A stretch of 7,566 bases of DNA. It comes from a virus (taxonomy: Duplodnaviria; Heunggongvirae; Uroviricota; Caudoviricetes). The first letter of the stretch is position 1. Each line of letters starts with the position of its first letter. Positions 3,512 to 3,701 of the stretch are shown here, in pieces. The notes below the pieces were generated by a model. It made no database searches. It was not told the DNA's origin and saw nothing but the letters and a program-made list of their open reading frames with translations. Position numbers and translations under genes: made by a program. The stretch lies in the IMG/VR virus record IMGVR_UViG_2698536559_000017; one strand, written 5' to 3'.

Positions 3512-3701
3512 CTCACCCCCTTGATTTGACAGAACACAGGCTGAGGGTGGCGATAAAAATCATCGACCGCAACGCCGGGGAAGGATACGCGAAAGCACAT
3601 CCCGAACTCACCCCCTTGATTTGACAGAACACAGGCTGAGGGTGGCGATAAAAATCATCGACCGCAACGCCGGGGAAGGATATGCGAAAGCACATCCCGA
3701 A
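3512..3701. repeat. tandem direct duplication, 2 x 95 bp, one mismatch (C/T at the GGATACGCG / GGATATGCG position)
   Basis: Unit CTCACCCCCTTGATTTGACAGAACACAGGCTGAGGGTGGCGATAAAAATCATCGACCGCAACGCCGGGGAAGGATA(C/T)GCGAAAGCACATCCCGAA occurs at 3512..3606 and again at 3607..3701. Each unit carries a consensus TTGACA hexamer (3526 and 3621). Confidence 0.9.

Follow-up and report, generated by a model that had tools for sequence, protein, structure and literature searches.

Tandem duplications of roughly 100 bp in the tetA gene of E. coli have been studied as products of slippage or illegitimate recombination at short microhomologies, and for the expansion and contraction that such arrays subsequently undergo. 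Direct repeats have also been described in phage P4, where the crr element consists of two copies of roughly 120 bp that carry iterons for the alpha primase. A third point of reference is provided by the phage-inducible chromosomal islands (PICIs): their lytic genes depend on the activator AlpA (PMC6092414), the origins published for those of Gram-negative bacteria have the layout of the origin described below (PMC6092414), and the gene content of published E. coli PICIs is matched by that of the satellite described here (PMC6092414, PMC11773190).

The DNA analysed in this study (the ‘window’, meaning the whole stretch of 7,566 nucleotides) is part of such an island, a PICI-type satellite of E. 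coli. It contains AlpA, Icd, DUF4222, a D5-type primase, an iteron origin, an operon of small genes, SSB, ProQ/FinO and PerC. In related genomes, the full element begins with a tyrosine integrase, DUF6387, AlpA and an Icd-like gene, and adjoins rcnR/rcnA/rcnB. The gene tables of two of them (L001 and L089) list integrase, AlpA, primase and iteron origin in that order, within an element of ~10-15 kb; taken together with the Pfam matches and the iterons, the same tables describe an element without a full phage structural or lysis module. Downstream of its origin, the window harbors two head-to-tail copies of a 95-bp sequence, which very likely represent a recent, slippage-type, intragenic tandem duplication within a phrog_1231 pseudogene of the satellite, probably a neutral one. 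The features on which this reading draws are the following:

1363-3195, upstream of the origin: primase of 610 aa, with D5_N/DUF5906/Pox_D5 domains (Pfam).
3209..3431, no strand assigned: satellite origin of replication, in which 11 CTGTTCACC-type iterons form two inverted sets on either side of an AT-rich spacer (about 3311-3336).
3483..3814, plus strand: phrog_1231 pseudogene (an 81-aa ORF in relatives), identified by alignment to the intact L002 gene, three-frame translation, a PHROG match and PGAP.
3512..3606, plus strand: copy 1 of the 95-bp unit, with C at unit position 77 (3588), from Tandem Repeats Finder (TRF) and base-by-base comparison.
3607..3701, plus strand: copy 2 of the 95-bp unit, with T at unit position 77 (3683), from TRF and base-by-base comparison.
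3702..3703, plus strand: CT microhomology, common to the start of the unit and the sequence that follows the array (TRF end 3703).
3815..4111, plus strand: 98-aa gene (phrog_27268), which comes next in the operon and has a GGAG Shine-Dalgarno sequence of its own.
4121-4564, downstream of the 98-aa gene: SSB.
4621-5145, downstream of SSB: ProQ/FinO.
5142-5414, downstream of ProQ/FinO: PerC.
7312..7566, plus strand: intact paralogue of 84 aa, which matches phrog_1231 (E 1.5e-23) and shares 55% identity with the broken gene's orthologue.

A pattern search for CTGTTCACC returned 16 matches against 1.75 expected, 11 of them within the origin at 3209-3431. Several further observations concern the island itself. 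Three draft genomes (L089, L090 and L091, positions 1-3500) have the same integration site, beside rcnR-rcnA-rcnB and a fimbrial usher operon. Within the window, two ORFs whose stop and start codons overlap (5796-6656, 286 aa, and 6653-7315, 220 aa) are related as distant paralogues (31% over 98 aa, E 3e-13); neither gave a Pfam, PHROG, NCBIfam or PADLOC match, and both constitute satellite cargo. In one relative (L001, 8285-9144, corresponding to window positions of about 5860-5890), a 1-bp indel in an A-run divides the 286-aa ORF between two annotated genes, of 57 aa and 229 aa, and resembles a homopolymer error of long-read sequencing more than a biological change.

The repeat was delimited by Tandem Repeats Finder as window 3512-3703 (period 95, 2.0 copies, 98% matches, 0 indels, score 377), and a base-by-base comparison of 3512-3606 with 3607-3701 gave a single mismatch in 95 bases, at unit position 77. 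Both approaches thus confirm the near-perfect 95-bp tandem duplication that an earlier note on this DNA had reported at 3512-3701, and the single mismatch in 95 agrees with the very recent date that it proposed for the event. A 95-bp repeat with one mismatch cannot have arisen by chance; the two copies adjoin head to tail without a spacer, and the related loci provide the single-copy state. Identity between the copies extends by 0 bases leftward and by 2 bases (CT) rightward, and the breakpoint of the duplication can lie anywhere within that microhomology, at 3702-3703. One TTGACA hexamer is found per unit, at 3526-3531 and 3621-3626, exactly where the note had placed them. Its placement of the array between the iterons and the cargo operon calls for one refinement, that the repeat did not originate in intergenic DNA: the array lies wholly within what was formerly the first gene of the downstream operon.

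That gene can be recognized from its relatives, in which the unit corresponds to codons 11-42 of an intact gene of 81 aa, the first after the origin, which forms an operon with the 98-aa gene, SSB, ProQ/FinO and PerC. The remnant in the window can be aligned over its whole length to the intact gene of one relative (L002), and this alignment places three lesions in it. Two bases are deleted between 3505 and 3506, 95 bp are duplicated, and one further base is deleted between 3764 and 3765. The start codon is a conserved GTG at 3483, with a GAGG Shine-Dalgarno sequence 8 nt upstream, and in a three-frame translation the product that begins there ends after 13 codons. The correct frame is preceded by a single start candidate (TTG at 3621), which has no ribosome-binding site and would give a truncated product of 53 aa; no ATG, GTG or other TTG was found ahead of that frame. 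A rescue of the frame by the combination of the 2-bp deletion and the duplication was considered and rejected: the sum of -2 and 95 restores it arithmetically, yet the shifted frame reaches a TGA within the first unit, after 13 codons. The same locus in NZ_CP027550.1 is annotated by NCBI PGAP as a ‘frameshifted; incomplete’ pseudogene. Homology to the family and disruption of the frame relative to its intact members are therefore both present, and two further proposals of the earlier note (that the unit contains part of a decayed gene, and that 95 bp, not being a multiple of three, shifts the frame) are substantiated by the intact relatives and PGAP in the one case and by translation in the other. 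What that reading overlooked were the two earlier frameshifts in the gene, and the single-copy state outside the lineage.

The intact orthologue matches phrog_1231 with an E value of 1e-48 (PHROG; function unknown), and the protein of the broken gene gave no Pfam, NCBIfam or PADLOC match and no PDB sequence match below E 0.1. An AlphaFold2 model of the phrog_1231 protein takes the form of a two-helix hairpin, with moderate confidence (pLDDT 68.5), for which no significant fold match was found in the PDB. Homologues of the 81-aa protein occur only in E. coli, Shigella and E. albertii, and all are labelled as hypothetical or prophage proteins. In-frame internal duplications were also considered for the longer members of the family (103-142 aa) and were rejected, as these carry only N-terminal extensions. 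The intact paralogue at 7312-7566, for which homologues of the same length exist in E. coli, may be functionally redundant with the broken gene or compensate for its loss.

Single-copy loci were examined in 84 relatives (80 from IMG/VR, together with L002, L003, L005 and L007), and the unit is present once per locus in every one of them (84/84), inside an intact 81-aa ORF in 79. In two of these loci the 81-aa gene is annotated directly after the origin (L002, 5283-5528; L003, 5284-5529). Among 35 distinct coding sequences, the variable sites at codon positions 1, 2 and 3 number 21, 6 and 39 for the whole gene, and 3, 1 and 17 within the 95-bp unit, and the pN/pS ratio of the 81-aa gene in the same set is ~0.16; the region is therefore protein-coding and under purifying selection. 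The leader of ~50 nt that separates the last iteron from the GTG or ATG start (window 3430-3482, compared across 80 related loci) is almost invariant and includes a conserved GAGG/GAGA Shine-Dalgarno sequence; no clear sigma-70 promoter is visible in it.

Of 5426 complete E. coli genomes, about 1100 matched the locus, whereas a 56-bp probe for the repeat junction matched 1 of the 5426. A sample spread over the 1100 genomes that have the locus gave single-copy spans in 60 of 60 rows. A 39-nt junction pattern was absent from species-representative genomes, from IMG/VR and from JGI metagenomes; the junction had no match in the phage collection, and queries of IMG/VR and JGI metagenomes with the 98-aa protein produced no usable further members of the lineage. 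The earlier note had pointed to orthologous loci as a check on the array, and across these sets (the 84 loci, the 60/60 sample and the single junction match in 5426) copy number proves to be fixed at one outside the lineage of the window.

Inside that lineage the number of units differs between assemblies. Contig DAXTKZ010000006.1 of GCA_042935475.1 (L004) reproduces the window at 100% identity, with two units that bear C and T at unit position 77 (a ‘C,T’ array). L006, a separate isolate that is different by 3 substitutions and 1 gap, likewise has two units (C,T). The complete circular chromosome of strain 2015C-4136CT1 (NZ_CP027550.1, L001) has three (C,C,T), and beyond the extra unit its sole difference from the window is a gap of 1 bp that lies downstream of the array, close to window position 5860. 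L005 (GCA_002513555.1) has one. The copy-number variation that the earlier note had envisaged thus appears among assemblies of near-identical elements, as one, two and three units; the two-unit assemblies are drafts, in which three-unit arrays have possibly been collapsed. In a de Bruijn graph, a (C,C,T) array produces a loop, and the path that avoids this loop spells exactly (C,T); two units may therefore be an under-count, and the difference between two and three could reflect assembly collapse. Unequal exchange or slippage in a (C,T) array would give (C,C,T) if the switch point precedes unit position 77, and the array states would therefore be derivable from one another.

The order of events is suggested by L005, the closest single-copy relative, which has a single unit together with both the 2-bp and the 1-bp deletion, and a downstream module 99.8% identical to that of the window; by parsimony, the frameshifts would therefore predate the duplication. 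L005 is a recombinant that carries another primase module, which weighs on this indels-first argument, founded as it is on parsimony. Its sequence agrees with that of the window over 1-757 and again from 2122 on, with a different segment in place of window 757-2122, comprising other small genes and a 509-aa primase that lacks the D5_N domain; this difference therefore indicates a module exchange with a breakpoint inside the primase gene. In the same assembly (3764-4297), the shifted frame loses its stop through a TGA-to-TGG change, and the old GTG opens an ORF of 177 aa that runs in frame into the 98-aa gene, which may be the product of chance or a new N-terminal extension.

On this evidence, the history of the locus would have begun with decay of the phrog_1231 gene by frameshift, tolerated perhaps owing to the intact paralogue. 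Misalignment at the 2-bp CT microhomology during replication would then have duplicated 95 bp, whether by slippage or by illegitimate recombination, and subsequent slippage or unequal homologous exchange between the 95-bp copies would have added or removed units. One may speculate that repeated firing of the nearby origin on induction favours slippage. In a gene that was already dead the duplication could persist as a neutral change, whereas in satellites with an intact gene selection would be expected to remove such events. We infer the slippage mechanism and the order of expansion from these patterns; the duplication itself is most probably neutral, in view of the prior loss of the gene and of the intact paralogue 3.6 kb downstream, although the leader of an operon may influence its expression. 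In physical terms, all it does is add 95 or 190 nt to the untranslated stretch that separates the origin from the 98-aa gene. The alternative that the earlier note had left for last, that the repeat is simply the product of replication slippage, turns out to be the best explanation. The array is an ordinary mutational scar with a possible copy-number polymorphism, and most probably neither a regulatory nor a replication element.

Other explanations of the array assign it a role in expression of the downstream genes. If each unit supplied a TTGACA -35 hexamer, the duplication would create tandem promoters, or a changed promoter spacing, for the 98-aa/SSB/ProQ/PerC operon, and it is true that the hexamer is perfect in every unit, that the array is located directly upstream of that operon, and that a consensus scan found no convincing sigma-70 promoter elsewhere between the origin and the operon. 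The hexamer, however, consists of two codons that encode Leu-Thr within a conserved LDLTEH motif, and it reads as the synonymous TTGACG in 49 of 79 intact relatives and as TTGACA in the other 30, so that no conservation beyond coding constraint is seen. The hexamers at distances of 16, 17 and 18 nt downstream (TGGCGA, GGCGAT and GCGATA) match TATAAT at only 1-2 of 6 positions, which leaves no -35/-10 pair, and the promoter scan gave no site in either unit; on the plus strand of the region it reported only a weak GTGACA-17-CACAAT, at 3483-3511. Variation within the unit falls at third positions and follows a coding rather than a regulatory pattern, and in relatives the unit is part of a translated gene. 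The effect on promoter dosage or spacing that the earlier note had raised accordingly finds no basis here, and a duplicated promoter is very unlikely; given the AlpA dependence of PICI lytic genes, transcription of the operon may enter from upstream. An effect through the length of the leader has been considered as well, in which a longer untranslated leader would alter Rho-dependent polarity or mRNA stability, such that copy number tunes the downstream operon. Translation from GTG 3483 stops at codon 14, a long untranslated stretch then precedes the 98-aa gene (about 290 nt after the 13-codon stub ORF, versus about 195 nt with one copy), and the number of units appears to differ between isolates; but scans and folding disclosed no terminator-like site or unusual RNA structure in the leader region, the 98-aa gene has its own Shine-Dalgarno sequence, and the array is confined to a single rare lineage. 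When one unit and the region 3470-3830 were folded as RNA, the z-scores were -0.5 and -0.9, with no structure signal, and a terminator scan found none in the units. An Rfam search of the whole window returned nothing in the repeat; its only results were sub-threshold matches to plant and animal miRNAs at 3236-3416, which are artefacts, because the inverted iteron sets form a long imperfect hairpin. An effect of leader length on the operon is, on balance, unlikely. The further proposal that the array is an unstable but heritable polymorphism of leader length, in which the number of units (1, 2, 3 or more) tunes expression of SSB/ProQ/PerC, for example through Rho-dependent polarity, is distinctly unlikely; were it true, such tuning would give rise to sub-populations with different satellite behaviour.

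The two explanations that remain concern replication and the assembly itself. Direct repeats beside an iteron origin might act as a cis-element of replication in the manner of P4 crr, and 80 bp separate the array from the final iteron of an origin that is served by a primase-helicase and built from CTGTTCACC-type iterons. Against this, the pattern search found no CTGTTCACC iteron in 3512-3701, even when one mismatch was allowed, such that neither repeat contains the iterons expected of a crr-like element; 84 relatives that share this origin have one unit each, and the unit consists of coding sequence under purifying selection. A replication element is, in consequence, extremely improbable. The duplication might also have been made by the assembler, with one copy as the true state, as the window comes from a draft assembly, on a contig of 335 kb, and tandem repeats are prone to error in assemblies. 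The identical junction, however, recurs in three further assemblies (L004, L006 and L001), which excludes an error in a single assembly; these three are independent, share the C/T difference between units and include a complete circular chromosome, and assemblers tend toward collapsing tandem repeats rather than creating them. An assembly artefact is thus highly improbable.

The biological importance of the array is small, and its value is that of a clean example of a duplication that persists, and apparently changes in copy number, within an already dead gene. The apparent ‘consensus -35 box’ in each unit of the window is a by-product of two codons. Of wider use may be phrog_1231 itself, a conserved gene that is the first to follow the origin in many satellites of E. 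coli and whose function is worth testing, and the array as a site at which short-read assemblies may under-count repeat units.

The locus may be compared with the systems introduced above and with others of related form. It shares with tandem sigma-70 promoters a repeated TTGACA upstream of an operon, and differs from them in the absence of a -10 element at 16-18 nt and in a hexamer that is not conserved as such among relatives. The likeness to P4 crr consists of direct repeats of ~100 bp beside a primase-helicase origin with short iterons, whereas the unit in the window has no iterons, is single-copy in relatives, and is coding sequence. The E. coli PICIs EcCICFT073, EcCIEDL933 and EcCIMP1 share with the satellite an integrase, AlpA, a primase, a two-set iteron origin with an AT-rich region, a PerC-family gene and integration in the chromosome; this likeness concerns the host element and not the repeat. 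As at the VNTR loci used for MLVA typing of E. coli, the number of units appears to differ between very close strains with identical flanks, although here the array is found in one rare lineage, with 1-3 units, and its unit is longer than those of most typing VNTRs. The tandem duplications that form at microhomologies share with the array near-identical head-to-tail copies of ~100 bp, a 2-bp microhomology at the breakpoint, and assembled arrays of two and three units in otherwise identical DNA, and the case described here differs from them in being a natural one, situated in the pseudogene of a satellite.
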